From: an uncultured Spirochaetota bacterium
GTDB lineage: Bacteria > Spirochaetota > Spirochaetia > SZUA-6 > Fen-1364
Assembly: GCA_963820525.1 (NCBI GenBank)
Contig: CAWGAA010000003.1
Location: 800,001-864,000, forward strand
DNA length: 64,000 nucleotides
Reading direction: 5' to 3'
Both the position numbers and the translations under genes were made by a program. This document shows, one piece after another, positions 26,708-59,727 of this stretch. The notes under the pieces are model-generated. The model saw nothing but the letters and a program-made list of their open reading frames with translations, was not told where the DNA came from and did not search any database. Each line of letters begins with the position of its first letter. Position 1 is the stretch's first letter.

Positions 26708-26732
26708 GAAATTCACACACAACGAGTTGAAC
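26708..26732 (+). other. Putative primary attI-like site; crossover G|TTGAAC at 26726
   Basis: Identity with the other three transposase cassettes begins exactly at this GTTGAAC, with no hairpin upstream. Confidence 0.75.
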
Positions 26733-26808
26733 AAAATCGCTCCGCGATGGCTTTCATCAAGCCTTAGTCTTCATTCGCCGCCATGAAAGCAAGACAGATG
26801 TTTCCCGC

Positions 26809-28011
26809 TTGTTATACAGCATGGGCTATATTGAAGCGGCAACGGTTTTTCCAAGACCCAAATTCGAAGTCGCCGATGTTTTCAGACAAAGCACCCAGTT
26901 ACTGAAAGGCATCAGTTATGATCATTGGAAAGTCGTAAACGCAATCATAAACTGCCGCGGTCCGAAATTGGGCGGCCATAAACTTGTTTGCCATGAATGC
27001 GGGTATGAACAGATATCCTATAATTCATGCAGGAACCGGCATTGCCCCAAATGCCAGGCGAGCAAGCAGGCGCAATGGGTTTACGAGCGGACACAAGAGC
27101 TTCTGCCCATAAAATATTTCCATATCGTCTTCACCGTCCCGGCGGTATTGAATTCCCTTATTCTCCAGAATAAAAGAGTGCTCTACGACATTCTCTTTCA
27201 CGCCGCAAACGAGACTCTTCAAGAAGCCGCGGGAAACCCGAAGAATCTCGGCGCGAAGATCGGATTTATCGCCATTCTCCACACCTGGAGCCAAAACCTA
27301 CTTGACCATCCACATCTGCACTGCATTGTTACCGGAGGGGGATTGAGCCGGGATAAATCCGCATGGATTGAAAGCAGGAACAACTTCTTTATCTCGATAC
27401 ACATTCTCAATCGATTGTTCAGAGGTAAATACCTGCATTATTTGAAACAGGCATATGCAGCAAAAGAGTTGAGTTTCTTTGGTAAGTTACGCAAGACAGC
27501 AGAGACAGCCGGGTTTGCAAAGGTGTTGGATGAATGTTATGCGAAAAAATGGATCGTCTACGCCAAAAAGCCGTTTTCCAATCCGTTACGCGTACTGAAA
27601 TATATAGGGCACTATACGCATCGGGTAGCGATCAGCAACAAACGGATATTGAATTTCACCGGCGGAAACGTGAGCTTTATATGGAAGGACTACAGGAATA
27701 GAAACCGGAAAAAGGTAATGACACTTGGCGCCTCCGAGTTCATGAGAAGATTTCTCCTGCATGTGCTGCCGGAAGGATTCAAGCGTATACGATTTTACGG
27801 CCTCTTGAGCAACGGGCACAAAAATGAGAATCTGAAATACATCCGTCGTTTGTTATGCATCGATCTAGAATCTCAACAGCGATCGTATGATTTTTTCTTG
27901 GAAGCGCCTGAGACTATCGAAAAAAGATGTCCCCGCTGCAAGAGCGCGAATATTCAGATTATTGAGCTCCCGCCGGAAAATACCGCTGAAAGTTATTGGA
28001 ACAGCGCGTAA
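26809..28011 (+). CDS. IS91-family (Y2/HUH) transposase, cassette copy 1
   Basis: Zn motifs CHEC and CRNRHCPKC, HUH motif HPHLH, YIGHY; ATG start may be 26821. Confidence 0.92.
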   Translation: MLYSMGYIEAATVFPRPKFEVADVFRQSTQLLKGISYDHWKVVNAIINCRGPKLGGHKLVCHECGYEQISYNSCRNRHCPKCQASKQAQWVYERTQELLPIKYFHIVFTVPAVLNSLILQNKRVLYDILFHAANETLQEAAGNPKNLGAKIGFIAILHTWSQNLLDHPHLHCIVTGGGLSRDKSAWIESRNNFFISIHILNRLFRGKYLHYLKQAYAAKELSFFGKLRKTAETAGFAKVLDECYAKKWIVYAKKPFSNPLRVLKYIGHYTHRVAISNKRILNFTGGNVSFIWKDYRNRNRKKVMTLGASEFMRRFLLHVLPEGFKRIRFYGLLSNGHKNENLKYIRRLLCIDLESQQRSYDFFLEAPETIEKRCPRCKSANIQIIELPPENTAESYWNSA

Positions 28012-28041
28012 TAAAACCCATAGCGCGGGCGGAGCGACTTC

Positions 28042-28236
28042 GTTCAACATAGGGTTTACGCTCCGCTCCCTCCGGTCGCTCCGGGCTTCGCCACATGCCC
28101 CTCTGGCACAGGGCTTGCAGATCAAATCTTCTTACGGTCCTCTAAGATGTGTGGTACACTCTTTTCTATGTTTTGCGGGGCAACCCCTGTGCCAGCCCTT
28201 CGGGACGGGGCATGTCGTAAACCCTTTACGTTATAC
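28042..28236. repeat. Outer attC-like site (transposase subtype)
   Basis: GTTCAAC...GGGTTTACG/CGTAAACCC...GTTATAC with internal stems. Confidence 0.85.
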
Positions 28237-28240
28237 GCCA

Positions 28241-28280
28241 TTGCGCCTTTGTGCATCAGCTGTATAATATGATGTTAGCT
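28241..28280 (+). promoter_or_regulatory. Carrier head: promoter plus inner attI-like site
   Basis: TTGCGC-16-TATAAT-ATGAT-GTTAGCT. Confidence 0.7.
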
Positions 28281-28337
28281 CCTTTAAAGAATTTTTACGT
28301 CATTATTATATCTCTGGATTTTGCTTAGAAATACTAT

Positions 28338-28838
28338 ATGTCACAGAAAATGATGACTAGAAATTATCGGTCTGCAATAATTATTTTTATTGGCATTTTG
28401 TTAGTATCGCTTTTGGGATATTTTTTAATAACCAAGAACACTATTGTTGAAGTGTTAAAGTATAGAGAATTCAAAAATGAGCTTGATTCTTTTATAAAGA
28501 ATTTGAATAAGAATGAATTTGAAAAAGCTGCCTATCAATTCCATTTTCTTGAAGCACAAAGTATTGGAATTGAACAATTAAAAAGAAACTTAGAGTCTAT
28601 AAAGAATAGATTTGGTAAAATAATTAATGGATCTAATAATATAACTTATTTAAAAACTAATAATGATAATATTTCATATTATGCCATTATTAGAATAGAG
28701 AATCCAAAAAATGATGGTGAAGTATTAGAAATAGTTGTGTATGAAGAAAATGGATACGGGAAACCTACTATTACTATATTTAATGGAATTGAATTTAAGG
28801 ATGAAATAAATCTCACAGATTGGGTAATAATGAATTAA
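28338..28838 (+). CDS. AT-rich membrane-anchored hypothetical protein (inner cassette)
   Basis: 166-aa ORF with N-terminal TM, followed by attC. Confidence 0.75.
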   Translation: MSQKMMTRNYRSAIIIFIGILLVSLLGYFLITKNTIVEVLKYREFKNELDSFIKNLNKNEFEKAAYQFHFLEAQSIGIEQLKRNLESIKNRFGKIINGSNNITYLKTNNDNISYYAIIRIENPKNDGEVLEIVVYEENGYGKPTITIFNGIEFKDEINLTDWVIMN

Positions 28839-28846
28839 GGAAAAGG

Positions 28847-28965
28847 AGCTAACATGCTGTTGAACTTGACGCCTAACACTTGTTGCAGCCATAGTTGCCT
28901 ACGTCCATAGAACCTTATTGCTTTTGGCTTCGGGTCGGCGGCGCAAGTTAACAGCGTTGTTATCT
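28847..28965. repeat. Inner classical-type attC
   Basis: AGCTAAC-ATGCT-GTTGAACTTG...CAAGTTAAC-AGCGTT-GTTATCT, extrahelical base in L box. Confidence 0.85.
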
Positions 28966-29013
28966 GGCCCCAAGTCCTTTCAAGATTGCCGTGGCCAATA
29001 GGAGAACCGATGA

Positions 29014-31026
29014 ATGAGTGCCAAACGTGCAGCTGTGACCGCAGGACTCCATCCAGAAGCGAACCTTTCACATTTCACTCCGTACGAGCAGGAACTAATC
29101 CAGAAGCAGTTCTGCACCGAGTTCTATGTAACAAACCAAGGCGGCGTAGTCGAGCTGAGCAGGACATCGGTCTACAGATTCTTCTTGATCAAGCCAACCA
29201 CAGTCTATCAGGAGCAGTTTAACCTCGATCGGGAGATTGTCGTTCTCTTTAGCGACTATCCGAATTTTGAGCCGCGTACGCTGGATGCTATTGAGGAAGC
29301 TTATAAAAGGTACCAGGAACTCCGCATAGAGAAGATATGCTCAGTTCTTATAAGTAGAGATGTGGAAATTGAGCAAAAAATAAAAAGCCTCCTGAAAAAC
29401 ACCAGTGAGAGCCAGATCATCGTTCCATTCCACTACAAGGAGTTGCAGACAGTCTCCGACCTATATTTCTTCAGGAATAGATTCAAAGCCCATTTCTACA
29501 GCAGAGACCTTTTCTCATATGAATCTGCACTCAAGAAGGACCTCTACTTTTTCGGCAGGAGTGATCTCGTTCACAAGGTAGTCAATAGACATCGCAGTGG
29601 AGAGAATTCCGCACTTTTCGGGCTGAGGAAAACCGGTAAGACCTCTATCATTTTCGGAATACGCAGGGTGCTAAACGCGACTGAGGAGAACTCTGTCTAC
29701 ATCGACTGCCAGGACTCCGGCTTCTATTTAAAGAGATGGAATCACGCCCTTCGCTATATAATCGACGAAATAAAATCTCAAAACCACGCGTCCGTAATCT
29801 TGTCCGATGAATCCGAATACACTGAGGATGGCTGTAGCGCGGCTTTTGCAAGAGACATATCAAAGTTGCGCAAGAAACTCGGCGGTAAGCCGATAATGAT
29901 CATTTTCGATGAGCTGGAGCGTATAACATTCGGGCTTTCTTCGGCCGAGCATTGGAAAACGGGGAAGGACTTCGTCCATTTCTGGAGAACTCTTAGGTCT
30001 CTGTTTCAGAAGCTGGAGAGCGTTTTTACCTATCTTATTGTTAGCACGAACCCTCGCTCGGTAGAGACGCCTATGGTCAACGGTGACGAGAATCCCATCT
30101 TTTCTCAAGTTCCATACGAATATATCCCGCCATTTGATGTACCTCAGACGAAGGAAATGGTCGAACGCTTGAGCCAGATCATGGGCCTTCACTTCGATGA
30201 GATTCTGTATTCGAAATTGACGGAGGATTTTGGAGGCCATCCATTTCTCATTCGCATGGTTTGCAGCGCGATCAATCGCCTTTGTGACTCAACGCGGCCA
30301 GTGAGAGTCGATAAAACCGTTTACGAGAAAGGCAAGCAACTCTTCAATAAAGAATATAGTAGCTACATAGAGATGGTGGTCACTGTTCTTCGAGAGAGCT
30401 ATTCCGACGAGTTCGAAATGCTCAAGTTCCTAGCGCTTGGCGACATACCGACCTTTATGGAGTTCGCCTCCGCATCTCGAGAGTACACAAATCACCTTCT
30501 CGGCTACAACATCGTTGATCAAAATAACCAATCCTACTCCTTCAAGATCGAATCGATCAGGGAGTATCTGATATCCGAGAACAAGTACAAGAAGCTAGGC
30601 TTAACAAAGAAAGAGATGCTTGCCGAGATATCCGAACGTCGCAATGAACTGGAACCCCGGCTGAGAAACTTGGTGCGCCAAATTCTGCTTGTGGCAATCG
30701 GCGAGTCTGCCGCCGCCACCCTGGTTCGCAATATCTACGGTGATCCGAGAAAAACTAGATATGCTGGCCTTTCCTACAAAGAATTGTTTAATCCAAATAG
30801 GGTAGATATCTATTGGGACGATCTTCAAAAGATTGTCTTAGCCGAATGGGACCACTTCCAGAATGTGTTCGAAAGAGACAGAGAGGCGTTCATCGTGAAT
30901 ATGAAGGCCGTCAACAAGTATCGGTCTGACGCACACGCAAAGGATATCTCTCCGGAAGAGATGGAACTCTTTCGAGTGTGCGCGACGAGATTGGAGACGC
31001 AGATACGAAACTTCTTCGGAGGATAG
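29014..31026 (+). CDS. P-loop ATPase (STAND/AAA-like) with possible C-terminal HEPN-like domain
   Basis: GLRKTGKTS Walker A, IIFDELE Walker B, GGHPF, C-terminal YRSDAH. Confidence 0.75.
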   Translation: MSAKRAAVTAGLHPEANLSHFTPYEQELIQKQFCTEFYVTNQGGVVELSRTSVYRFFLIKPTTVYQEQFNLDREIVVLFSDYPNFEPRTLDAIEEAYKRYQELRIEKICSVLISRDVEIEQKIKSLLKNTSESQIIVPFHYKELQTVSDLYFFRNRFKAHFYSRDLFSYESALKKDLYFFGRSDLVHKVVNRHRSGENSALFGLRKTGKTSIIFGIRRVLNATEENSVYIDCQDSGFYLKRWNHALRYIIDEIKSQNHASVILSDESEYTEDGCSAAFARDISKLRKKLGGKPIMIIFDELERITFGLSSAEHWKTGKDFVHFWRTLRSLFQKLESVFTYLIVSTNPRSVETPMVNGDENPIFSQVPYEYIPPFDVPQTKEMVERLSQIMGLHFDEILYSKLTEDFGGHPFLIRMVCSAINRLCDSTRPVRVDKTVYEKGKQLFNKEYSSYIEMVVTVLRESYSDEFEMLKFLALGDIPTFMEFASASREYTNHLLGYNIVDQNNQSYSFKIESIREYLISENKYKKLGLTKKEMLAEISERRNELEPRLRNLVRQILLVAIGESAAATLVRNIYGDPRKTRYAGLSYKELFNPNRVDIYWDDLQKIVLAEWDHFQNVFERDREAFIVNMKAVNKYRSDAHAKDISPEEMELFRVCATRLETQIRNFFGG

Positions 31027-31033
31027 TGGGGAT

Positions 31034-31147
31034 GGATAGCATGCGGTTGAAGCTGACGGTTTGCTTTTGTCTGATCGGTTCGCCATATCATGTTATAGAC
31101 TGTACTCTTATTAGCTGACTCGACGCAACTTAACCGCGTTTTTATAG
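31034..31147. repeat. Inner attC, degenerate
   Basis: GCGGTTGAAGCTG / CAACTTAACCGC arms; R boxes are GGATAGC and TTTATAG. Confidence 0.7.
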
Positions 31148-31196
31148 GCTGTAAATGGTAGAAAAAGGAAGTAGTTTACTACAAAGGCGCATCGGC

Positions 31197-31330
31197 GCAT
31201 AACGGCACATTGGCGTTCCGGTGCCCTACGGGCACCTTCGGGCTCCGCGGCGCTGCGGCGCGCCGCTCCGCCAAATGTCCCTCGGCCCTGTTGGCCTCTG
31301 GCCACTTCGCCAATGTGCTGCACGTTAAGT
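31197..31330. repeat. Outer attC-like site
   Basis: GCATAAC...GCACATTGGCG/CGCCAATGTGC...GTTAAGT. Confidence 0.85.
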
Positions 31331-31457
31331 GTAATGCCCGACGGAGCGCCCGCGGTATCGGACGACTAAGGTCGTCTTGCTTTGCATCCTTGGCTTGGAT
31401 AGGAGAAATGAATTGACATTAACATGAGATTCAACTTCTATTTATTGGGGTCACTGA

Positions 31458-34400
31458 TTGCCTGACGAAAATAATCAAGTTGATCATGAAAAACTGAATG
31501 CTCTTTTCGCTGAACAATACCGGTGGGCAAGTCTATCTGTAACCATCGAAGAGATTGCGAAAGAAAACAAATTACTTATTCGTGATCTTTCCAGATACGA
31601 TCAAACCATCGCTATTCCTCTCCTGGCAAGTCTCTTAACACTTCCCGAACTGCAATCGCATTGTATTCGTCTTGAAATTCTCAGTTGCCTTGGCAGTGGT
31701 GTATTGCCGCGGCAGTAAGAAAGCAAATATAAAGCAATTAGTTCGTTGGTTCTCCCAGATCGGCAAATCGCAATGTGTGACGGGTGAAGATCCGGCTGAA
31801 GATGTCTTCGTCTACCTAGTGCAGGATGTGCACGGAGACTACCGGCTTATCGGAGGTATATGGGAGTCGGCTGGCTTCTATACTCAGCGCGTTCTCGATG
31901 TAATTTCTACGATGCCTAACACCGGACAATTCGAGCAAATCAAGAGGAGTGTCCGCGCACTACTTATAATCTCCGATATAGTATGTGGCAAAGCTGGGCT
32001 GAACCGCTATCAGCTCGGCTCTGATGAACACCATTCGAAACTATCGCCGCGCATACTCGCAGGGCACAAACCCCTAATATCTAGTGTGACGATCTCCTTT
32101 GCCGAGCTCAATGAACACAGTATCACACCTGACGATATCGAGCCATTCCTCTTGCATCCGCAGATGAAAAAAGACTTACCTCTGCAGCAGATCGGCCTTA
32201 GCTATTTGGATCGCTGCCCGTTGATCGTGCATGGCGTGACGCATCTAACAGTTGCGCTCCCCTCAGCGCTATCCATTGCCATGCGAGACTACGTGATCGC
32301 GAAAGTTATTGAAGGAGGGCTAGTCAACACCTTTGATAGCGTACTTGCGCAGAACTATTCGAGCCTATTCTTCGACACACCCCTCCTTGGCGGGCCATTA
32401 CGAGCGCCAGTCCATTGGAAGAAGTCTGGCGCGCACCAATGGTCGAATTTCTACCTCAGGGTTGATGAGGGCTACTTCATTTCGTTCCACCTCTTCTTGC
32501 CATCGGTACAGACGCATCCCAATGGCGGTTTCAAGGGCGTTTATCGAGACGAGGGCGCCCTGACCGAAACGCTGCAAACCTCGATCAATGAGATTCTCAA
32601 TCATTTCGAAGGGCGGGTCGATTTCAAAGAAGGGCTCGTTGTTCTGGTCGGCTGCGGCTGGGGTAAAGGCTATGCCACCCAAGCTATTGAACTGGAACAT
32701 GAACATTGGCGATTCGAAAGTATGTCTGCGGCTGACCTCGTGCGACTCAGTTGGCTTGGAGATATGAACCCTGCCTACTTCTGGCGCATCCAAGACGGGC
32801 TGGAAGCTGTGAGGAAGGCTGGAGTCCAGATCGTCAATCCCAATGGGATTCTGAATCTGATTGGATGGGTGCGCAGCAACGACGGCCACTTCGTGCCACA
32901 TGCACAGTTACCGGAGGGCGAGATTTCGCCAGAACGGCCTTTGACGCTATACCCGCCCCTCAACCTTCTGCGGGAAGTGCGCGCTGACTCCGATCGTGGT
33001 TATGACCGCCACTGTGCGATTGATAACACTGGGACTTGCCACAACGTCCAGCATGCCTCGTCGAAGCCGTTCTTCAGCAGTGAAAGTGCTAGGCGCGTTT
33101 ATGCCTCTATGGACGACGTGCGAAACAGGACACTTACGTCAGTGTATGAGGGCAAGCTCAAACTTTGGCTGTCCGTGGCCACACCCAACATTGCTGAAAG
33201 AGATGTCGAGTACGGGCTTTGGGAAATGGCGGGCGAATGGCTGCATCGCATAGGAAATGCTCTTGATGAGCGCGGCGAGACTACAACTGAGACGCATAGT
33301 CTCAGGGTCTATATTGAATTCCGTGACGGCAATCCAACAAAGGAAAAGGGTGAAAAACCGGCTCTCAAAGACCTTTTCCCACTCTGTACAATCGAACCTC
33401 ATAGTGAGCCTAGCGCATGCAAAGCCGTCTTCCAAGCCGGATTTCTGGCTGGCTTTCGCATTGCCGAGAACGTTGCTGAGCGTCTCTTTGTTCGCACGCT
33501 ATCGCGGGCTTACCTGCATCTCCTTGGCGTAGAAGATTGCGACGGCGAGGCCGAGGCTGTTGAGGCCCTCGTTGTGCCCAACGATTTTGCTCGCAGCTTC
33601 CATCTTTTTCAAACGCAGCAATTCATAGATTATATCCGGGATACGCTACCCAAAAAGCTCATTGCCATCGATCCGGTGGATGATGCCGCAACGAGAATAG
33701 GTCTTGGCGGGCGTGTCCTTGAAAAAGGGCAGAGCAACAAGATCGAAGGCAGAGAAGCATGCACGGTTTTTCTTGGTAAGGTCGTCGATACCTTGCTAGC
33801 TGAGATATTCGAGGCTCTCGCCGCGTTCAGCCGGCTTTCAACACTCAAACGCCTTGTGGCCAATTGCGAGAAAGCAAATGCCGAGGAAGACCATTGGAAG
33901 CGGACATCAGCCGCTGTCCCAGGCCTACACGGCAACGAGCCAGATACCACCGATCGCTTTATCAAGCAGCTATCGAAGTTTGCTGGTGCTGCAATCGCAA
34001 GCCGTATCTTAACTGAGATCGCTTTATGCGTCTGTCCGGCTGGGGATGCCATACAGATATCGGATATCGAACTGAGCAAATTGATCGCACGCGCTGCGTT
34101 GGTGGTACGAATTGGTGGTCTATCAGATGCTATCTATTACAACGCACTCCCTCCGGAAGCTCACGATCTCGCCATTAGGCGATGTACTTTTTCGCGATGA
34201 ATTTGGGCACTTGGTGGTTGAACCTATGCTGGCTCGCGTGATTGGGGAAAAACTCATTGCCGACGCACCTTTGCAGAAGAGGAACTATGAAGATCCAGAA
34301 TTCTTACCTCGGCCAAAGAAAAGATTGGTGATGAATTCTGGAACATCTGGAATCTCGAGATGGATTTCAGCATAGATGAAGCCCGAAACATTATTGGCGC

Positions 34401-35247
34401 ATTGGAGGATAAAGGTATTGCGGATCACACCGCGATATTCACGATTAAGCAGAGCGAGTACCTATCTCTCGTTTGCTCTGACCAAGTCTCCGGAAATGCA
34501 GCCAGAAGGTTCCTTGATCAGTTTTCGCTTGCTGCGCGGCCACGCTGGAATATGCCGCCTATAGGCTTCAACGCCAAAGACATTTATCCTTGGCGTTTTG
34601 GCCGACGGCTGTCCTTTGTAACGCGCCCAATTCTGAAAGTAGATGATAGCGATGACCCTCTGCTGATCATTGCTCCCGCCTCTCTGAGAAATGGCTTTGC
34701 TTACGTTTTTGATGGTGCTTATAACGGACGGCTTGAGCAAGCATTCTTCCACAGCAAGGAAATGAGGAATACCTGGTGGGGCAAAGCAAGCGAAGGTCAC
34801 ACCTTCAATGCAGAGGTTGCGAAGGAGCTGTCGGAGAAAGGATGGCAAGTTCGCGAGAACGTCGGGATGCCCGAGCTCCTCAATCGCAAGATCGAGCAGG
34901 ACTATGGAGATGTCGATGTGCTTGCGTGGCGGACCGATCGCGAAGAGGTTCTGGTAGTAGAATGTAAAGACCTATCATTGGCACGCAACTATTCGGAGAT
35001 TGCCGCTCTGCTTTCGGACTATCAAGGTGCTGAATCTGAGGGCGAGCCAGATAAGCTCAGAAGACATCTCAACCGTGTCGAGTTTCTTCAAGACAATTGC
35101 GACCAGCTCCAGCACTTCACCGGAGTTCAGGGACCGCGGATTGTATCCTGTCTAGTTTTCAGCGGCGTTGTCCCTATGCAGTACGCTAAGATCGACGCTC
35201 TAGCAAATACTCATGTCGGCGGGATCCCGAACATTCTGGAACTTTAG
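31458..35247 (+). pseudogene. Large (~1260 aa) protein with C-terminal PD-(D/E)XK nuclease-like domain, about three frameshifts
   Basis: Overlapping ORFs 31458-31718, 31672-34200, 34112-34375 and 34360-35247; GDVDVLAW...VVECK motif. Confidence 0.65.
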
Positions 35248-35337
35248 TTTGACTACAACGACACCGAGTTCAGTATTGATCAGGCCGGTAACAAAGTAAC
35301 GAAGCGGGGTTGGGCTAGATTTCAGAGACCTTTAAAG

Positions 35338-35400
35338 CAGTAACAGGGGTTGAACGGTGAACGTCGAAGTACATCAATGTACTTTGACGAGCTTTTAACC
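35338..35400. repeat. Possible inner attC remnant
   Basis: TAAC-AGG-GGTTGAA...CGTCGAAGTACA/TGTACTTTGACG...TTTAACC, no downstream GTT. Confidence 0.4.
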
Positions 35401-35418
35401 ATGAGAGTCGGGCACTAC

Positions 35419-35551
35419 ACTTAACAGCACGTATACGCTTCGGCGCCCGGTAGGGCGCCTCGGGCTCCGCGGCGCTTCAGCGCGCCGCTACGCCACATGG
35501 CCTTCGGCCTTGTTGGCCTCGGGCCACGTCGTATACGTGCGGCCGTTGAAC
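35419..35551. repeat. Outer attC-like site
   Basis: ACTTAAC...GCACGTATACG/CGTATACGTGC...GTTGAAC. Confidence 0.85.
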
Positions 35552-35627
35552 AAAATCGCTCCGCGATGGTTTTCATCGAGCCCTAGTCTCCATTCGCCGC
35601 CCTGAAAGCAAGACAGATGTTTCCCGC

Positions 35628-36830
35628 TTGTTATACAGCATGAGCTGTATTGAAGCGGCAACGGTTTTTCCAAGACCCAAATTCGAAGTCGCCGATGTTT
35701 TCAGACAAAGCACTCAGTTGCTAAAAGGCATCAGTTATGATCAGTGGAAAGTCGTAAACGCAATCATAAACTGCCGCGGTCCGAAATTGGGCGGCCATAA
35801 ACTTGTTTGCCATGAATGCGGGTATGAACAAATATCCTATAATTCATGCAGGAACCGGCATTGCCCCAAATGCCAGGCGAGCAAGCAGGCGCAATGGGTT
35901 TACGAGCGGACACAAGAGCTTCTACCCATAAAATATTTCCATATCGTCTTCACCGTCCCGGCGGTATTGAATTCCCTTATTCTCCAGAATAAAAGAGTGC
36001 TCTACGACATTCTCTTTCACGCCGCAAACGAGACTCTTCAAGAAGCCGCGGGAAACCCGAAGAATCTCGGCGCTAAGATCGGGTTTATCGCCATTCTCCA
36101 CACCTGGAGCCAAAACCTACTTGACCATCCACATCTGCACTGCATTGTTACCGGAGGGGGATTGAGCCGGGATAAATCCGCATGGATTGAAAGCAGGAAC
36201 AACTTCTTTATCTCGATACACATTCTCAATCGACTGTTCAGAGGTAAATACCTGCATTATTTGAAACAGGCATATGCAGCAAAAGAGTTGAGTTTCTTTG
36301 GTAAGTTACGCAAGACAGCAGAGACAGCCGGGTTTGCAAAGGTGTTGGATGAATGTTATGCGAAAAAATGGATCGTCTACGCCAAAAAGCCGTTTTCCAA
36401 TCCGTTACGTGTACTGAAATATATAGGGCGCTATACGCATCGGGTAGCGATCAGCAACAAACGGATTTTGAATTTCACCGGCGGAAACGTGAGCTTTATC
36501 TGGAAGGACTACAGGGATAGAAACCGAAAAAAGGTAATGACACTTGCCGCCTCCGAGTTCATGAGAAGATTTCTCCTGCATGTGCTGCCGGAAGGATTCA
36601 AGCGTATACGATTTTACGGCCTCTTGAGCAACGGGCACAAAAATGAAAATCTGAAATACATCCGTCGTTTGTTATGCATCGATCTAGAATCCCAACAACA
36701 ATCGTTTGAATCTTTCTCGGAAGCACCTGAGATCATTGAAAAACGATGCCCGCGCTGCAATAGTGCTAATATACAAATCATTGAACTTCCACCGGAAGAG
36801 GCATCTGAAAGTTATTGGAACAGCGCGTAA
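35628..36830 (+). CDS. IS91-family (Y2/HUH) transposase, cassette copy 2
   Basis: HPHLH, YIGRY and Zn motifs. Confidence 0.92.
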   Translation: MLYSMSCIEAATVFPRPKFEVADVFRQSTQLLKGISYDQWKVVNAIINCRGPKLGGHKLVCHECGYEQISYNSCRNRHCPKCQASKQAQWVYERTQELLPIKYFHIVFTVPAVLNSLILQNKRVLYDILFHAANETLQEAAGNPKNLGAKIGFIAILHTWSQNLLDHPHLHCIVTGGGLSRDKSAWIESRNNFFISIHILNRLFRGKYLHYLKQAYAAKELSFFGKLRKTAETAGFAKVLDECYAKKWIVYAKKPFSNPLRVLKYIGRYTHRVAISNKRILNFTGGNVSFIWKDYRDRNRKKVMTLAASEFMRRFLLHVLPEGFKRIRFYGLLSNGHKNENLKYIRRLLCIDLESQQQSFESFSEAPEIIEKRCPRCNSANIQIIELPPEEASESYWNSA

Positions 36831-36860
36831 TAAAACCCATAGCGCGGGCGGAGCGACTTC

Positions 36861-37056
36861 GTTCAACATAGGGTTTACGCTCCGCTCCCTTTGGTCGCTC
36901 CGGGCTCCACCACATGCCCCTCTGGCACAGGGGTTGCAGGTCAAATCTTCTTACGGTCCTCAAAGATGTGTGGTACACTCCTGTCTATGCTTTGCGGGGG
37001 CAACCCCTGTGCCAGCCCTTCGGGACGGGGCATGTCGTAAACCCTTTACGTTAAAT
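36861..37056. repeat. Outer attC-like site (transposase subtype)
   Basis: GTTCAAC...GTTAAAT; near-identical to 28042-28236. Confidence 0.85.
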
Positions 37057-37367
37057 GACAGCGCAACGGGATTTGGAAGTGCGACCATTTGAAGAATTCA
37101 TTTGGGTAATTAGCCTGATGCGTTATGGTTTTTAGATTTCTTTACTTGTCTTTTCTACGACATCTGCGGCCTTCCTCGCCGCATTTCGGAGTCCTCTTGT
37201 GGGGGTGCGATCACTTTATGAGTAGCTGATCTCTCAACGTGGGAGAACAGGCCGCAGAATCAACGTAGTATTCTAGTATAAATGCCTTCTATATACCTGC
37301 TCTTGAGAGCCGTGGGTTGTTCGTAATTGACTGGCAGAGTATATTCCAAAGGGCGCCGTCATTTAAC
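37050..37367. other. ORF-less cassette with conserved stem and outward promoter-like motif
   Basis: Homologous to 48799-49119; TTGTTC-17-TATATT at 37317-37345. Confidence 0.65.
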
Positions 37368-37496
37368 AGAGCGTATATGCTCCGGCGCCCTGTTCGGGCG
37401 CCTCCGGGCTCCGCGGCGCTGCGGCGCGCCGCTCCGCCACATGGCCCTCGGCCTTGTTGGCCTCGGGCCACGTCGTATACGCTCGGCCCGTTGAAC
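37361..37496. repeat. Outer attC-like site
   Basis: ATTTAAC...GAGCGTATATG/CGTATACGCTC...GTTGAAC. Confidence 0.85.
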
Positions 37497-37572
37497 AAAA
37501 TCGCTCCGCGATGGTTTTCATCGAGCCCTAGTCTCCATTCGCCGCCCTGAAAGCAAGACAGATGTTTCCCGC

Positions 37573-38775
37573 TTGTTATACAGCATGAGCTGTATTGAAG
37601 CGGCAACGGTTTTTCCAAGACCCAAATTCGAAGTCGCCGATGTTTTCAGACAAAGCACTCAGTTGCTAAAAGGCATCAGTTATGATCAGTGGAAAGTCGT
37701 AAACGCAATCATAAACTGCCGCGGTCCGAAATTGGGCGGCCATAAACTTGTTTGCCATGAATGCGGGTATGAACAAATATCCTATAATTCATGCAGGAAC
37801 CGGCATTGCCCCAAATGCCAGGCGAGCAAGCAGGCGCAATGGGTTTACGAGCGGACACAAGAGCTTCTACCCATAAAATATTTCCATATCGTCTTCACCG
37901 TCCCGGCGGTATTGAATTCCCTTATTCTCCAGAATAAAAGAGTGCTCTACGACATTCTCTTTCACGCCGCAAACGAGACTCTTCAAGAAGCCGCGGGAAA
38001 CCCGAAGAATCTCGGCGCTAAGATCGGGTTTATCGCCATTCTCCACACCTGGAGCCAAAACCTACTTGACCATCCACATCTGCACTGCATTGTTACCGGA
38101 GGGGGATTGAGCCGGGATAAATCCGCATGGATTGAAAGCAGGAACAACTTCTTTATCTCGATACACATTCTCAATCGACTGTTCAGAGGTAAATACCTGC
38201 ATTATTTGAAACAGGCATATGCAGCAAAAGAGTTGAGTTTCTTTGGTAAGTTACGCAAGACAGCAGAGACAGCCGGGTTTGCAAAGGTGTTGGATGAATG
38301 TTATGCGAAAAAATGGATCGTCTACGCCAAAAAGCCGTTTTCCAATCCGTTACGTGTACTGAAATATATAGGGCGCTATACGCATCGGGTAGCGATCAGC
38401 AACAAACGGATTTTGAATTTCACCGGCGGAAACGTGAGCTTTATCTGGAAGGACTACAGGGATAGAAACCGAAAAAAGGTAATGACACTTGCCGCCTCCG
38501 AGTTCATGAGAAGATTTCTCCTGCATGTGCTGCCGGAAGGATTCAAGCGTATACGATTTTACGGCCTCTTGAGCAACGGGCACAAAAATGAAAATCTGAA
38601 ATACATCCGTCGTTTGTTATGCATCGATCTAGAATCCCAACAACAATCGTTTGAATCTTTCTCGGAAGCACCTGAGATCATTGAAAAACGATGCCCGCGC
38701 TGCAATAGTGCTAATATACAAATCATTGAACTTCCACCGGAAGAGGCATCTGAAAGTTATTGGAACAGCGCGTAA
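37573..38775 (+). CDS. IS91-family (Y2/HUH) transposase, cassette copy 3
   Basis: Protein identical to copy 2 in the ORF track. Confidence 0.92.
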   Translation: MLYSMSCIEAATVFPRPKFEVADVFRQSTQLLKGISYDQWKVVNAIINCRGPKLGGHKLVCHECGYEQISYNSCRNRHCPKCQASKQAQWVYERTQELLPIKYFHIVFTVPAVLNSLILQNKRVLYDILFHAANETLQEAAGNPKNLGAKIGFIAILHTWSQNLLDHPHLHCIVTGGGLSRDKSAWIESRNNFFISIHILNRLFRGKYLHYLKQAYAAKELSFFGKLRKTAETAGFAKVLDECYAKKWIVYAKKPFSNPLRVLKYIGRYTHRVAISNKRILNFTGGNVSFIWKDYRDRNRKKVMTLAASEFMRRFLLHVLPEGFKRIRFYGLLSNGHKNENLKYIRRLLCIDLESQQQSFESFSEAPEIIEKRCPRCNSANIQIIELPPEEASESYWNSA

Positions 38776-38805
38776 TAAAACCCATAGCGCGGGCGGAGCG
38801 ACTTC

Positions 38806-39001
38806 GTTCAACATAGGGTTTACGCTCCGCTCCCTTTGGTCGCTCCGGGCTCCACCACATGCCCCTCTGGCACAGGGGTTGCAGGTCAAATCTTCTTACG
38901 GTCCTCAAAGATGTGTGGTACACTCCTGTCTATGCTTTGCGGGGGCAACCCCTGTGCCAGCCCTTCGGGACGGGGCATGTCGTAAACCCTTTACGTTATA
39001 G
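38806..39001. repeat. Outer attC-like site (transposase subtype)
   Basis: GTTCAAC...GTTATAG. Confidence 0.85.
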
Positions 39002-39005
39002 GCCA

Positions 39006-39044
39006 TTGCGCCAAGAGTTTTTGCAGTATAAGGTATTTTTATGC
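39006..39044 (+). promoter_or_regulatory. Carrier head, degenerate
   Basis: TTGCGC-15-TATAAG-GTATT-TTTATGC (GTT replaced by TTT). Confidence 0.5.
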
Positions 39045-43839: not shown

Positions 43840-43938
43840 CTATAACAACGCGTACACGCTCCGCTCCCTTCGGTCGCTCCGGGCTTCGCCACATGCCTCG
43901 CTTCGCTCGGCACGTCGTGTACGCGCGGGACGTTATGG
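43840..43938. repeat. Outer attC-like site
   Basis: CTATAAC...CGCGTACACG/CGTGTACGCG...GTTATGG. Confidence 0.85.
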
Positions 43939-48648: not shown

Positions 48649-48667
48649 TTTCTCTCGCAGATACGGC

Positions 48668-51429: not shown

Positions 51430-51433
51430 GCCA

Positions 51434-51473
51434 TTGCACCAAGAGGTATTTACTACATAGTATATTGTTATGC
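51434..51473 (+). promoter_or_regulatory. Carrier head: promoter plus inner attI-like site
   Basis: TTGCAC-16-CATAGT-ATATT-GTTATGC. Confidence 0.65.
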
Positions 51474-52787
51474 GCGCCTTTGCATCGATAGAACATGCAA
51501 ACGCGGCCATTGCCGTGCCGATGAAATTGCGAGCGCAGATTACGGGAGGCAATCGGCTTTAATAGCGCCGTTCGCCATGCTATGATCGTCGACAATAGGA
51601 AGATTGCAGTGGATCACGACAATGCGGGATCTAATCCAATTATCAGTCTGTCAAGCCATTTTCACGATAATATCGCCCAATACGAGGCAGACGGATATGA
51701 TGAAGCGAACGTGCGCGTTGACTTCATTGACAAAATGTTCGAACTCCTGGACTGGGACGTTCGAAACGACACCAATGCAAGCGAACGCTTTCGCGACGTT
51801 GTTCGAGAAGACAAGATTGAGATTGGCGGAAGAGAGAAGGCACCTGATTATAGCTTCAGAATTGGAGGGCAGAGGGTATTCTTTGTCGAAGCCAAAAAGC
51901 CGCACATTCGGATAGGAAGTGACCTTGGAGCCGCCTACCAGCTAAGAAGGTATGGCTACTCTGCGAAGCTTCCAGTTTCTATCCTAACCAACTTCAAGGA
52001 ATTCGCAGTATATGATACCCGGATTAAGCCGAACCACGGAGACGAGAGCGCCGTTGCAAGGCTCTTCTATTGCACATATGAGGACTATCCAGAACAGTTT
52101 CCGTTTCTCTATAGCACCTTTTCTAAGCCTTCCGTGATTAAAGGGGACCTCGACCGCTACGTCATAGACAATCGCACCAAGAAGGGTACTGCTGAAGTTG
52201 ACGAGGATTTTCTTTCATTGCTCTCGGGCTGGCGTAAAATCCTGGCAAAGCGAATTTCATCGCAGAACCCAGACATTGACGTCTTCCAGCTCAACCATGC
52301 AATCCAAGTACTTATTGACCGTATGGTCTTCCTTCGTATTGCAGAAGCTCACGACCTTGAAGAATACGCAACTCTCCAAAAAGCCGTCGAAAAAGCGAAC
52401 GGCTATTGGAATCTGAAAGGCGTGTTCGCCCTAGCCGATCAAAAGTACAATTCAGGGTTGTTTGCAGTGGATGATTTCCTTAATTCGCTAAAGATCGAGG
52501 ACAATGTTTTTCGGGACATAGTACAGGACCTCTATTATCCCAAGTGCCCGTATGAGTTCAGTGTTCTGCCTATAGAGATACTTGGTAAAGCATACGAGCA
52601 GTTTCTCGGACAAATCATTCGGCTAACTCCCTCACATCAAGTGAAGATTGAAGAAAAGCCCGAGGTGCGGAAAGCTGGCGGGGTCTTCTACACCCCAGAG
52701 TACATTGTGAGATATATCGTCCAATACACCCTGGGAGAGAAATTGAAGAAGGCATCGCCACAGGACGTGCCCGCTCTTTCCGTCCTA

Positions 52788-55604: not shown

Positions 55605-55718
55605 GCATAACAAATCGTTGCAGTAGTCGCCTTTAGAGCCGTCTGGATCGGAAGTTGCAGTTCGGAATACAAGATGAGGCGGGTTGATGTGGCGGCGCTA
55701 CTGAACTCTATGTTATGC
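55605..55718. repeat. Inner classical-type attC
   Basis: GCATAAC-AAATC-GTTGCAGTAG...CTACTGAAC-TCTAT-GTTATGC. Confidence 0.88.
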
Positions 55719-55780
55719 TTCTTTTTGCTAAATGATCATGCATGTTGCAAAGCGCGGCAATATGATGGTAGCCTCCTAAA

Positions 55781-56962
55781 GTGATTCGAAGTAAACAAAA
55801 CCAACGCCCTTGGTATATAAACCAAGCCTATTGGCATGATCTTGCTACGAGATATATTGTGTCTGTTCAAAAAGTGAAAATGGGATCGCCTTATGCGGCA
55901 GAAATTGACGCTTTTCGCGAATTCAACATTGCTAAAGTCATCTTCGAAAGCAATCTCATTGAAGGGGCTGGACGTCCACTTGGTGAGACAAGGAAATTGA
56001 TTCTAGAATACTTTCCTCGATTCCCTTCAACTTTCACAGAATTCTATGGAACTGATGAGCGCGTGGATCTTCCACGGCTTCTCCTCAAGAATGGGCCATT
56101 TGCACAGATAAATGAGGAATTGCGCTCCTTGGGGTACGATCCAGCGCGCTTCACCCCAAGCATCAGCATGGCTGGGAGTTCAAGATCTGTAAAAGAGGTT
56201 GTTCAGCATCATAGCGCAATTCTCTATGCAATGTTTCATTCAATAGATTATCTCATCCATAGGACAATGTATGATTGGGCTCAGAGTCTTAAGACCGACA
56301 AACTTGATAAAAAATTGCAAAAAGAACTGGAAGAAGCAATCCTTAAGGAATACCCCCACGCAAGCACTCTAGAAGATATTCAAAGCCCAAAATTATTCGC
56401 CGAAAAAACAGTCAGCGAGTTGCATAAAACAATTGCTGAAGGAATTCTTCCAAACGATGCTAAGGTGGAAGCTGGAGAGTATAGAATTGATAACAGAATC
56501 GTCGGCTGGGACATAGTTTTCCCTTCACCAGAACTAATCTCCTTGATGATGCCGAAATTTGTGGATCGCGCAAATGACATTGTTCAGGGCATCCCTGTGA
56601 GAAAGCTGAACTTATTCGAGGCTGCAGCACGCATTTCGCATGATTTTGTTACAATTCATCCTTTTCCAGATTTCAATGGCAGGATCTCCAGAATTCTGAT
56701 GAACATGGTTTTACTCGCACATAATTGTCCATTTCCAGTAGCTCTTAAAGGCGGAAGCAAAGCCAAAGGCAAGTACTTTACCTCATTGAAGCGTGCGAAT
56801 AATGGCAATTTCATAGCACTATCCTCGCTTATCGCAATGCGGGTTACGGAGACATTCGAAGAACTCGACACGCATCTTAAGCGTGCTGGCCTTAGGAGCC
56901 TACTCACTTTGTCAAACCGGACACAGCGGAGCAACATTAGAAAATCAAACCCGAGAGATTAG
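55781..56962 (+). CDS. Fic family protein
   Basis: HPFPDFNGRISR Fic motif; SNLIEG inhibitory motif. Confidence 0.88.
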   Translation: MIRSKQNQRPWYINQAYWHDLATRYIVSVQKVKMGSPYAAEIDAFREFNIAKVIFESNLIEGAGRPLGETRKLILEYFPRFPSTFTEFYGTDERVDLPRLLLKNGPFAQINEELRSLGYDPARFTPSISMAGSSRSVKEVVQHHSAILYAMFHSIDYLIHRTMYDWAQSLKTDKLDKKLQKELEEAILKEYPHASTLEDIQSPKLFAEKTVSELHKTIAEGILPNDAKVEAGEYRIDNRIVGWDIVFPSPELISLMMPKFVDRANDIVQGIPVRKLNLFEAAARISHDFVTIHPFPDFNGRISRILMNMVLLAHNCPFPVALKGGSKAKGKYFTSLKRANNGNFIALSSLIAMRVTETFEELDTHLKRAGLRSLLTLSNRTQRSNIRKSNPRD

Positions 56963-56976
56963 GCAGAAGTACAGAA

Positions 56977-57088
56977 TCATAACAAGTTATGGGAGCTGTC
57001 TCCTTGAGTTCCGGTTGTTTTTATTTTGCATTGTTTGCTGTGTTTATAGAGGTCTGATTCGGCGGCGCAGCTCCACTCTATCATATGT
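56977..57088. repeat. Inner attC, right R box degenerate
   Basis: TCATAAC...TGGGAGCTG/CAGCTCCA-CTCTAT-CATATGT. Confidence 0.65.
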
Positions 57089-57135
57089 TGAAGAGATCTG
57101 GATAGAAATACATTATTATAATCTGGCGCAACGGC

Positions 57136-57205
57136 CTATAACCGCCCGTAATGTGCTTCGGTGCCCGCAAGAGCACCGAAGCACATTACGGGCAGCACGT
57201 TATAC
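57136..57205. repeat. Outer attC-like site (minimal unbranched subtype)
   Basis: CTATAAC...GCCCGTAATGTGCTTCGGTGC/GCACCGAAGCACATTACGGGC...GTTATAC. Confidence 0.85.
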
Positions 57206-57283
57206 GACATTTTTTGTTGCAAGGTTCTTTTCCATGTTTATACTGTTTAGTAATCGCCCTGCATTTATCGGAGGTTAATCTTT

Positions 57284-58036
57284 ATGGACCAACTAGTTTA
57301 TGATTATTTCACACCTGAAGTCATATCCAAGCTCAAAACCTATGTTTATAGGTTGATTGATCCTCGAAATGGTGAAACTTTCTACATTGGCAAAGGAAAA
57401 GGAAACCGTATCTTCTCTCATATTAGTGCAGAAAAGAAGATAGAAGGAGACGATTATAGCAATAAAATCAAGCGTATACGTGAAATACGTTTAGCTGGAT
57501 TTGAAGTGGCTCATGTTATTCATAGGCATGGAATGGATGATTCTACCGCTTTTGAAGTTGAATCAGCTCTTATTGATGCATATCCCGGGCTTACAAACAT
57601 TGTAGACGGCAGTGGCGGGAATGAATTTGGAGCAATGCATGCTAAAGAAATAATCAAGCGCTATTCTGCAGAACCAGCAATTTTCAAACATAAAGCATTA
57701 CTTATAACTATCAATAGAACCGCAACCGAACAGTCAATATATAACGCAACTCGATTTGCCTGGAAAATAAGCAAATCAAAGGTTAAGGATGTGGAAATAG
57801 TGTTATCAACTGTTCAGGGTTTATTTGTGGGAGCCTTTATCCCATTAAAATGGCTTGATGCCACTGCGGAAAACTTTCCTGATCGCGCACAAGGTGAGGA
57901 CCGACCTGGTAGAATTGGATTTATAGGCAAGGAAGCTCCAGATGATATAAAACGTATGTATGTGGGTAAACGTATACCAGATGGATTTAGACCGCGGGGA
58001 GCCGCCAATCCCATAATGTATACATGGTCCCGATAA
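57284..58036 (+). CDS. GIY-YIG (LEM-3-like) nuclease domain protein
   Basis: YVYRLIDPRNGETFYIGKGKGNR, ESALID, LTN; own TTGCAA-16-TATACT promoter-like motif. Confidence 0.85.
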   Translation: MDQLVYDYFTPEVISKLKTYVYRLIDPRNGETFYIGKGKGNRIFSHISAEKKIEGDDYSNKIKRIREIRLAGFEVAHVIHRHGMDDSTAFEVESALIDAYPGLTNIVDGSGGNEFGAMHAKEIIKRYSAEPAIFKHKALLITINRTATEQSIYNATRFAWKISKSKVKDVEIVLSTVQGLFVGAFIPLKWLDATAENFPDRAQGEDRPGRIGFIGKEAPDDIKRMYVGKRIPDGFRPRGAANPIMYTWSR

Positions 58037-58088
58037 TTTGCTAATCATACTACCGGAAGTCGGCTCATGACGGGTAACAAAAAACGCC

Positions 58089-58222
58089 GTATAACAGCGC
58101 GTAATGTGCATCGCCGCCCTACGGGCGGCTCGGGCTCCGCGGCGCTGCAGCGCGCCGCTCCGCCACATGGCCCTCGCCCTTGTTGGGCTCGGGCCACGTC
58201 ACATACGCGCGGCTCGTTGAAC
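58089..58222. repeat. Outer attC-like site
   Basis: GTATAAC...GCGCGTAATGTG/CACATACGCGC...GTTGAAC. Confidence 0.85.
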
Positions 58223-58298
58223 AAAATCGCTCCGCGATGGTTTTCATCGAGCCCTAGTCTCCATTCGCCGCCCTGAAAGCAAGACAGATGTTTCCCGC

Positions 58299-59501
58299 TT
58301 GTTATACAGCATGAGCTGTATTGAAGCGGCAACGGTTTTTCCAAGACCCAAATTCGAAGTCGCCGATGTTTTCAGACAAAGCACTCAGTTGCTAAAAGGC
58401 ATCAGTTATGATCAGTGGAAAGTCGTAAACGCAATCATAAACTGCCGCGGTCCGAAATTGGGCGGCCATAAACTTGTTTGCCATGAATGCGGGTATGAAC
58501 AAATATCCTATAATTCATGCAGGAACCGGCATTGCCCCAAATGCCAGGCGAGCAAGCAGGCGCAATGGGTTTACGAGCGGACACAAGAGCTTCTACCCAT
58601 AAAATATTTCCATATCGTCTTCACCGTCCCGGCGGTATTGAATTCCCTTATTCTCCAGAATAAAAGAGTGCTCTACGACATTCTCTTTCACGCCGCAAAC
58701 GAGACTCTTCAAGAAGCCGCGGGAAACCCGAAGAATCTCGGCGCTAAGATCGGGTTTATCGCCATTCTCCACACCTGGAGCCAAAACCTACTTGACCATC
58801 CACATCTGCACTGCATTGTTACCGGAGGGGGATTGAGCCGGGATAAATCCGCATGGATTGAAAGCAGGAACAACTTCTTTATCTCGATACACATTCTCAA
58901 TCGACTGTTCAGAGGTAAATACCTGCATTATTTGAAACAGGCATATGCAGCAAAAGAGTTGAGTTTCTTTGGTAAGTTACGCAAGACAGCAGAGACAGCC
59001 GGGTTTGCAAAGGTGTTGGATGAATGTTATGCGAAAAAATGGATCGTCTACGCCAAAAAGCCGTTTTCCAATCCGTTACGTGTACTGAAATATATAGGGC
59101 GCTATACGCATCGGGTAGCGATCAGCAACAAACGGATTTTGAATTTCACCGGCGGAAACGTGAGCTTTATCTGGAAGGACTACAGGGATAGAAACCGAAA
59201 AAAGGTAATGACACTTGCCGCCTCCGAGTTCATGAGAAGATTTCTCCTGCATGTGCTGCCGGAAGGATTCAAGCGTATACGATTTTACGGCCTCTTGAGC
59301 AACGGGCACAAAAATGAAAATCTGAAATACATCCGTCGTTTGTTATGCATCGATCTAGAATCCCAACAACAATCGTTTGAATCTTTCTCGGAAGCACCTG
59401 AGATCATTGAAAAACGATGCCCGCGCTGCAATAGTGCTAATATACAAATCATTGAACTTCCACCGGAAGAGGCATCTGAAAGTTATTGGAACAGCGCGTA
59501 A
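58299..59501 (+). CDS. IS91-family (Y2/HUH) transposase, cassette copy 4
   Basis: Protein identical to copies 2 and 3 in the ORF track. Confidence 0.92.
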   Translation: MLYSMSCIEAATVFPRPKFEVADVFRQSTQLLKGISYDQWKVVNAIINCRGPKLGGHKLVCHECGYEQISYNSCRNRHCPKCQASKQAQWVYERTQELLPIKYFHIVFTVPAVLNSLILQNKRVLYDILFHAANETLQEAAGNPKNLGAKIGFIAILHTWSQNLLDHPHLHCIVTGGGLSRDKSAWIESRNNFFISIHILNRLFRGKYLHYLKQAYAAKELSFFGKLRKTAETAGFAKVLDECYAKKWIVYAKKPFSNPLRVLKYIGRYTHRVAISNKRILNFTGGNVSFIWKDYRDRNRKKVMTLAASEFMRRFLLHVLPEGFKRIRFYGLLSNGHKNENLKYIRRLLCIDLESQQQSFESFSEAPEIIEKRCPRCNSANIQIIELPPEEASESYWNSA

Positions 59502-59531
59502 TAAAACCCATAGCGCGGGCGGAGCGACTTC

Positions 59532-59727
59532 GTTCAACATAGGGTTTACGCTCCGCTCCCTTTGGTCGCTCCGGGCTCCACCACATGCCCCTCTGGCACA
59601 GGGGTTGCAGGTCAAATCTTCTTACGGTCCTCAAAGATGTGTGGTACACTCCTGTCTATGCTTTGCGGGGGCAACCCCTGTGCCAGCCCTTCGGGACGGG
59701 GCATGTCGTAAACCCTTTACGTTATGG
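59532..59727. repeat. Outer attC-like site (transposase subtype)
   Basis: GTTCAAC...GTTATGG. Confidence 0.85.

Follow-up and report, generated by a model that had tools for sequence, protein, structure and literature searches.

An IS91-family transposase unit as a probable mobile cassette in an integron-like array of an uncultured Spirochaetota bacterium

Integron cassettes are normally viewed as passive cargo. The additional domain (AD) of canonical integrases (IntI) reads folded attC sites, attC recombination uses the bottom strand, and a preference for attI is known for integrase-mediated insertion. ISfinder lists members of the IS91 family of insertion sequences (IS) with an integrase-like open reading frame (ORF) upstream, and the IS1111-attC group and group IIC-attC introns split attC and are not cassettes themselves. 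Here we describe an integron-like array of an uncultured Spirochaetota bacterium in which a 1.5-kb unit with an IS91-family transposase gene is present four times, including the first position after the array's recombinase gene. The array lies in C3:800001-864000, where C3 is contig CAWGAA010000003.1 of assembly GCA_963820525.1 (G000), a metagenome-assembled genome (MAG) of 5.05 Mb in 4 contigs, and C1 is another contig of the same genome. This whole stretch of 64,000 nucleotides is called the window, and plain positions are counted from its first letter.

According to PMC13181058, IS91-family elements have an internal cleavage tetranucleotide at the left end, their right end (oriIS) abuts a 5'-GTTC or 5'-CTTG target, and no target duplication is made. 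The window's unit is like the family (IS91, IS801, IS1294 and the ISCR relatives) in its zinc-finger and Y2-HUH transposase, in the GTT-type tetranucleotides at its ends and in a subterminal stem-loop. Unlike them, it is never found outside arrays, its outer flanks are GTTA or GTTG, not GTTC or CTTG, and it contains an attC-like hairpin in every case and follows the cassette rule. Both the GTTC at its inner repeat and its left stem-loop are the same sequences as the R-box arms of the cassette. A single IS91 element, ISShvi3, forms a cassette beside attC in a Shewanella integron with a canonical IntI (PMC9229058), and the passage on it mentions no amplification, attI copies or boundary analysis. 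IS elements embedded within cassettes are known as well, and the same paper mentions the IS1111-attC group and group IIC-attC introns as mobile elements specialised on integron recombination sites; in the window, unlike in these elements, the attC upstream is left whole and the hairpin downstream moves together with the unit. Besides ISShvi3, our literature search, which did not cover subscription journals, ISfinder or TnPedia, returned nothing on IS91 genes amplified as cassettes or placed at attI, or on arrays with an AD-less IntI. What is new, as far as this search goes, is an IS91 cassette without a recombinase gene that has been amplified in an integron-like array, the integrase of which is missing the IntI hallmark.

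The array itself is like sedentary chromosomal integrons, i.e., its recombinase gene is divergent, an outward promoter-like site lies in attI, the cassettes share one orientation, and each unit ends in a foldable imperfect palindrome with RYYYAAC...GTT boxes. Crossover in GTT, self-complementary cassette ends, duplicated cassettes and insertion at attI are further likenesses. However, its recombinase lacks the IntI domain and falls below the cut-off of the integron integrase model TIGR02249, its hairpins are ~150-190 nt with an R-box pairing of 10-20 bp, and many of its cassettes are multi-gene units of 3-5 kb. A third comparison is with a two-gene subgroup of IS91 elements, in which tnpA follows an IntI-like recombinase gene. 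Their transposases share 43-60% identity with that of the unit, the non-coding ends of one member (L016) are homologous to those of the unit, and its end layout recurs in L016 and L076/L077. Unlike these elements, the unit has no recombinase gene, and the only recombinase gene at hand is outside it, divergent and from another clade.

We consider it probable, at roughly 0.65, that this integron-like array has in the 1.5-kb unit a genuine mobile cassette, whose sole cargo is the IS91-family rolling-circle transposase gene. A repeat search and a column-wise comparison found four units of 1507 or 1508 bp in the window (Table 1), of which copies 2-4 are 100% identical across 1508 bp, with 62 of 1507 positions setting copy 1 apart from them. 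In all six copies that the genome holds, the shared identity opens with GTTGAAC and closes with ...TTTACGTT (ACGTT), and the flanks outside are unrelated. Every unit is bounded by GTT on the left and on the right, with identity breaking off within 3 nt at each end; the unit's first letters are GTTG, and those that come after it are GTTA in five copies and GTTG in one. The attC upstream of the copies is complete up to its GTT and the downstream hairpin belongs to the repeated unit, i.e., no attC is interrupted. Since GTT is common to both sides, the crossover can be placed only inside it (|GTT, G|TT, GT|T or GTT|). An earlier first-pass annotation of this DNA had named the same four starts and GTT bounds, and the repeat search and column comparison agree with it on both; it had also drawn the boundary exactly at G|TT, and here its placement within GTT holds while the exact cut inside the three letters is not fixed by the sequence.

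Each unit ends in a hairpin of its own. GTTCAAC stands 35 nt past the stop codon of the transposase gene (tnpA) and is followed by a ~180-190-nt, G+C-rich imperfect palindrome which runs to ACGTT (28048 to 28230-28232 in copy 1). As single-stranded DNA (ssDNA) this hairpin reaches -49.9 kcal/mol (z -6.9, 0/200 shuffles as good), with z -3.4 for the hairpin of a neighbouring cassette, and its minimum-energy fold differs from the textbook R/L-box drawing. The ~195-bp att hairpin which the first-pass annotation had given to each copy was thus real, at ~190 nt and with a strong ssDNA fold, as was the inverted repeat it had noted at +11. The 20-nt start of the unit is reverse-complementary, in 18 of 20 positions, to the 20 nt which end at the AAC of its own hairpin. 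Because the ends pair in this way, as they do in the adjoining cassettes, a circularised unit would rebuild a complete site. The same annotation had pointed out GAAC and GTTC in the R boxes as matches to IS91 target tetranucleotides, which is correct as a fact of the sequence. A reading of the 20-nt inverted repeat as IS ends separate from the cassette was rejected, as the neighbouring cassettes show the same extended pairing over 10-18 nt.

This pairing runs through the array as a whole. We searched for 14-mers starting with GTT that match (at least 12/14) a 14-mer ending in AAC at 150-7000 nt downstream. The array (26000-64000) gave 25 such pairs; 1-25800, taken as a control, gave 5, and ten shuffles of the array sequence gave 1-11 each. 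The true pairs run head to tail along the array, and the unit's own ends pair at 12/14. It carries, as its neighbours do, one site at its 3' end and is bounded by GTT. An attC profile built on three neighbouring hairpins and iterated over the whole genome returned 32 sites, all of them in C3:828-891 kb (window included), C1:3085-3096 kb and C1:2068-2098 kb. The unit's own hairpin matches this profile (E 1.3e-5), and it has 42 nt in common, at 93%, with the resident attC at 43856-43897; we infer that part of it is of the resident array type.

The genome-wide distribution of the unit follows the arrays. Besides the four copies in the window there are two on C1, a full-length one at C1:3095567-3097073 (C1A) and a truncated one at C1:2097889-2099255 (C1B), which is without the first 141 nt and has a premature stop. 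All six copies are within the three arrays that hold this hairpin family, and none is elsewhere in the genome. A check for copies outside arrays had been proposed with the first annotation, and it gave none; there are no dispersed copies of the ordinary IS kind. Copy 1, which is in first position, as had been noted at first sight, and adjoins the attI-like region, is identical to C1A at 1507 of 1507 positions, and C1A likewise comes right after an attI-like region and a recombinase gene, the latter carrying a ~700-bp internal deletion. The flanks of these two copies have diverged, with 148 of 206 columns matching on the left (attI and the recombinase 5' end, ~200 nt) and 111 of 216 on the right (~200 nt). 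An identical unit in diverged flanks means that the unit moved alone to two attI sites, and that the cassette is recent while the platforms are old. C1B heads the third array, where it abuts chromosomal genes including a leucyl-tRNA-synthetase-like ORF. At C1:3097074-3097330 (locus L005/L184) there is a second platform of the same type, in which the 3' and 5' ends of the recombinase gene are fused by the ~700-bp deletion. A recent insertion at C1:3097 kb would need the C3 recombinase in trans, because the local gene has this deletion.

Contigs of four metagenome runs (X1-X4) were compared with 25500-31500, with X1 as the best match and possibly the sample of origin. One X2 contig of 209 nt (depth 3.7) follows 26570-26725 without mismatch and then continues at 28230, with GTT shared and a shorter side of 53 nt; here attI runs straight into the following cassette and the IS91 unit is missing. 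In X3, which comes from another study, the unit comes after another attC end, with 18 letters between the joined parts, and is followed by the start of a cassette which in this genome is found at C3:875439. An X4 contig holds a variant of the unit's hairpin without the 72 central nt (window 28113-28186), for which reason the long hairpin loop looks like an insertion into a shorter site. Contigs of X1 and X2 also reproduce the left junction of copy 4 (in X1 along with the 18 letters at the end of the attC upstream) and, for C1A and C1B, the right one. Over the unit, the contig depths in X1 add up to 16-25, compared with 2-6 on either flank; contig depth is not copy number, and these sums, like gaps in cover, count as no more than a hint of multiple copies. 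That the unit moves as a cassette and not by IS insertion, as had been suggested at first sight, is supported by the GTT bounds, the self-complementary ends, the confinement of all six copies to arrays, the two attI sites and the empty-site contig.

The transposase gene is intact. Each of the four units holds a 400-aa ORF, and its likely true ATG start gives 396 aa, a length typical among its closest database relatives. The protein reaches 427.7 bits (cut-off 125) with NCBIfam NF033538, 'IS91 family transposase', and has the Pfam domains Zn_Tnp_IS91 (PF14319) and Y2_Tnp (PF04986). Its Cys cluster, H167/H169/H171 and Y265/Y269 fall in invariant columns of an alignment of 32 family members; both profiles and columns agree with the first description of its zinc-finger, HUH and YxxxY motifs as intact. 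Between the two intact lineages there are 30 synonymous and 17 non-synonymous differences (dS 0.13, dN 0.018, dN/dS 0.14). The protein is therefore under purifying selection, and therefore still does something for the unit.

The recombinase of the array is a member of the IntI-like tyrosine recombinases (Pfam Phage_integrase, 1.6e-39), and yet the array had at first been taken for an ordinary integron, a view that fails here on the integrase. Against TIGR02249 the protein scores 191 bits (cut-off 265), with model positions 3-178 and 238-312 matched and 179-237 missing. In alignment, the protein lacks the ~29-aa IntI insert and a second insert of ~10 residues, and it keeps the catalytic residues (R, H-x-x-R, H and Y) together with the SPL motif at its C-terminus. 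More than 50 database clusters at 65-90% identity, several of them named spirochaete proteins, are also exactly 265 aa long; the missing IntI domain is therefore no one-off deletion. The genome has two canonical IntI proteins as well, which match TIGR02249 over the whole model with 448.6 and 410.7 bits. Their genes are at C1:1954228-1955157 and C1:682092-683030, and the attC profile of this window gave no match near either of them. Two recombinase/site systems seem to coexist in this genome without sharing the IS91 cassette.

In a first recombinase tree the window protein was an unresolved long branch. A tree of 46 rows, made by a quick search with Shimodaira-Hasegawa-like approximate likelihood ratio test (SH-aLRT) support and rooted on two Xer-like proteins of the genome, placed it in a clade of short spirochaete proteins (98) which is grouped with the two IntI (94). 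The IS91-linked recombinases form their own clade (96), and all are apart from Xer (99). A candidate origin of the window recombinase as an IS91-linked recombinase turned around was rejected on this second tree, to which 19 relatives had been added.

The platform consists of the divergent recombinase gene, attI, a promoter-like site and an array in one orientation. The promoter-like site reads outward into the first cassette and has 10/12 matches, with three such sites in the region being what shuffles lead one to expect; it is kept, together with the attI motif, at the second locus on C1. The recombinase gene is flanked by GAAATTCACA(C/A)A motifs (25775-25830, 26700-26725), which could be recombinase-binding repeats or could mean that the recombinase gene is on a cassette-like unit. 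Just past its 3' end there is a small hairpin (...CACAATAAC, 14 nt, GTTATTG...), and the same is present at C1:3097 kb. Relatives of the recombinase (38-53% identity) were found in 5 of 400 other genomes of the phylum searched. In two of these spirochaetes (G044 and G149) the gene again points away from a series of units with hairpins matched by the profile of our genome, and the first unit of G044 starts at GTT after a similar GAAAT(A/T)CACA motif. There were no IS91 genes in the 14-19 kb fetched beside the recombinase of G044 and G149, and no IS91 cassettes at any of the five loci with this recombinase family that were fetched from other spirochaetes. Two of the five genomes with the family, G399 (99% complete) and G104 (87% complete), gave no Y2_Tnp match, and in the other three the Y2_Tnp genes have 24-43% identity and are not of the cassette type.

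The descent of the unit can be read from the relatives of its transposase, for which we collected 165 loci among the matches listed (43-60% identity; genomes, metagenomes and the same phylum). An IntI-like recombinase gene is immediately upstream on the same strand in 151 of these and divergent in none, which agrees with the initial remark that IS91-like genes are often paired with a Y-recombinase. These upstream recombinases are ~265 aa long and also lack the extra domain. Of the 14 loci without such a gene, 11 have less than 100 nt of upstream sequence, one is of uncertain type, and two (L069 and L078) lack a recombinase gene ahead of the transposase in spite of ample upstream sequence; the last two may be further recombinase-less derivatives. 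In the window unit the recombinase gene is absent from all six copies, with 95 nt from the unit start to the ATG. Given the relatives with an upstream recombinase, the unit is probably a recombinase-less derivative. Scans of genome and metagenome contigs gave relatives of at most 56% identity among the matches listed, a single-protein scan of genome contigs gave no close relative of the transposase, and no match in 400 genomes of the phylum exceeded 53%.

The nearest relative with context among the matches listed is L016, from a Spirochaetota MAG, and by eye both of its non-coding ends are common to the window unit. Its left end reads GTTG.AC.AAATCGCT.CGCGATGG and its right end AAAACCCATAGC ... 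AGCGA.TTCGT.CAAC, followed by a hairpin of unrelated sequence. L076/L077 is a two-copy element of 2530 bp in an acidobacterial MAG, 100% identical between copies, with identity from CGTTTGAAC to ...AACGTTTT (CGTTT to CGTTT) and a ~100-nt hairpin following GTTCAAAC. The window unit, L016 and L076/L077 have in common the layout 'GTTxxAC arm ... arm-GTxCAAC, hairpin, (C)GTT', and therefore the two-gene IS91 subgroup has cassette-like ends.

Taken as a mobile cassette, the unit would be excised and re-inserted in trans by the resident 265-aa IntI-like recombinase via the folded hairpin. Insertion would be preferentially at attI, where the promoter-like site reads into the unit, and this preference would explain the platform-proximal spot of two full copies and probably of the third, truncated one. 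We propose that the unit descends from the widespread two-gene IS91 subgroup with the same end architecture, and that it would have lost its own recombinase gene and now relies on the resident one, mainly as a selfish passenger. Most plausibly the transposase would add ssDNA copies by rolling-circle displacement, and such extra copies would explain the amplification to six.

Several points weigh against this reading. Neither circle, excision nor integration has been directly observed, and for recombinase-dependent excision and integration the evidence is indirect, namely the identical attI copies and the empty-site contig. That empty site comes from one 209-nt contig at depth 3.7, and may reflect an ancestral arrangement or a strain in which the cassettes are ordered differently. 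Recombinase cleavage (G|TT) and HUH nicking (|GTT) cannot be separated by sequence, and the array recombinase is without the IntI domain which canonical integrases use on folded attC. The recombinase tree is a quick one with only two IntI sequences, both from this genome, and the set of loci leaves out the closest transposase relatives, P0001-P0012 (58-95% identity).

The unit might instead move by means of its own HUH transposase, which would start at the right boundary and finish at the left end, take GTT(A/G) as its target with a preference for the GTT boxes of the array, and use the hairpin as oriIS. A start with GTTG and a following GTTA (5) or GTTG (1) fit the formal IS91 end rule, there is a 5-bp stem-loop next to the left end, and at 35 nt past the stop codon the inner inverted repeat borders on GTTC. 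In addition, the transposase is intact and under purifying selection, and C1B has its right end but is truncated on the left, a pattern expected of abortive rolling-circle copies. However, two full copies and probably one truncated copy are at attI despite the many GTT sites of attC type, no copy is outside arrays, and all other cassettes obey the same boundary rule without encoding a transposase. The hairpin, too, is partly of the resident attC type, and GTTA and GTTG are not among the IS91 targets listed in the passages of PMC13181058 consulted. We therefore regard this explanation as unlikely.

A role as a domesticated helper, in which the transposase nicks GTT/GTTC boxes and peels ssDNA cassettes for the recombinase, and in which the first position is kept for expression, is less likely than the cassette reading, and we hold it to be rather improbable. 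A copy at the platform-proximal end of all three arrays, the promoter-like site kept at both attI loci and the dN/dS of 0.14 would suit such a role, and the linkage of recombinase and transposase at 151 of the 165 loci among the matches listed suggests cooperation. IS91 circles use the bottom strand, according to PMC13181058. The same strand serves in attC recombination. On the other hand, the arrays of G044 and G149 are without an IS91 gene in the 14-19 kb fetched beside the recombinase, and G399 and G104, two of the five genomes with the recombinase family, are without a Y2_Tnp match. Since the first-position copies are identical and their platforms have diverged, the first position is more simply explained by recent insertion. 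Copies 2-4 look like silent duplicates inside the array, and there is a variant with an empty site.

That the copies are assembly artefacts or segmental duplications of a repeat, and not independent mobile events, is very improbable, since despite the 100% identity of copies 2-4 and a metagenome-assembled source in 4 contigs each copy has different, unique flanks with identity stopping within 3 nt at both ends, several distinct junctions recur in short-read contigs of X1 and X2, and the X1 depth of 16-25 over the unit against 2-6 on its flanks points the same way as a hint only.

Table 1. Positions in the window of the recombinase platform, the four IS91 units and the neighbouring cassettes
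Feature	Position	Strand	Remarks
Array recombinase, 265 aa	25826..26623	-	IntI-like tyrosine recombinase without the IntI additional domain
attI-like region	26624..26725	+	promoter-like TTGATG-16-TATAAT at 26666-26693; motif GAAATTCACACA just before the crossover
IS91 cassette copy 1, first position	26726..28232	+	tnpA ORF 26809-28011, likely ATG 26821
Arms of copy 1	left 26726-26745, right 28029-28048		20 nt each; hairpin ~28042 to 28232
Cassette 2, after copy 1	28230..31326	+	leader with promoter-like TTGCGC-16-TATAAT; own attC 31164-31335 by profile
IS91 cassette copy 2	35545..37052	+	preceded by attC of the 4.2-kb cassette 31324-35544
Short cassette (~440 bp) between copies 2 and 3	37050..37492	+	start GTTAAATGACAGCG pairs with CGCCGTCATTTAAC before own attC, 13/14
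IS91 cassette copy 3	37490..38997	+	
IS91 cassette copy 4	58216..59723	+	left junction also in a short-read contig of run X1 (joint 31305>26726)

The cassettes next to copy 1 are unusually large. Cassettes 2 and 3 measure 3.1 and 4.2 kb and hold two genes each, i.e., a 166-aa ORF and a 670-aa STAND/AAA-like NTPase (29014-31026 region) with only sub-threshold Pfam matches in cassette 2, and ORFs of 842 and 295 aa (31672-35247 region) without any Pfam match in cassette 3. Both cassettes may carry cargo of the defence type. Many cassettes of the array begin with a conserved leader (GTTATRNGCCATTGCGCC) bearing the promoter-like TTGCGC-16-TATAAT, which is found at 28230-28273, 38995-39040, 43932-, 46401- and 59721-59765. 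After the leader there are inner GTT...AAC pairs (28274/28853, and 41721/43803 inside 38995/43846), and such a unit looks as if a cassette were nested in a promoter-bearing 'carrier'. The first-pass annotation had pointed out that three of the four IS91 copies sit directly upstream of a carrier unit. Although this is the case for 3 of the 4 window copies and 4 of the 6 genome-wide, ~8 of 17 other cassette starts are alike, and there is no enrichment.

Most broadly, the IS91 transposase and IntI-like recombinases might form an ancient working pair, which, with all parts of this idea taken together, we regard as speculative and improbable. If it were true, the HUH enzyme would peel the bottom strand at GTT/GTTC boxes as ssDNA circles, for the recombinase to fold and integrate. 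On this view, two-gene IS91 elements would count as self-sufficient 'cassettes with their own integrase', and the spirochaete system would be this machinery split into a resident AD-less platform and a free-riding copy-out transposase cassette. Integrons could, in that case, descend from such rolling-circle elements or share an origin with them.

For the cassette itself, the meaning of the finding is that a unit of an integron-like array encodes an enzyme which makes ssDNA circles, ssDNA being the substrate of attC recombination, and that this unit is amplified and found repeatedly in the expressed first position. Software for finding integrons which requires the IntI domain would call such arrays integrase-less. 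The short IntI relative of the array, the sister-clade recombinases of the transposase's relatives and the hairpin-GTT ends common to both provide a testable link between IS91 elements and integrons, which bears on how cassettes arise and duplicate, and on the origin of integrons.

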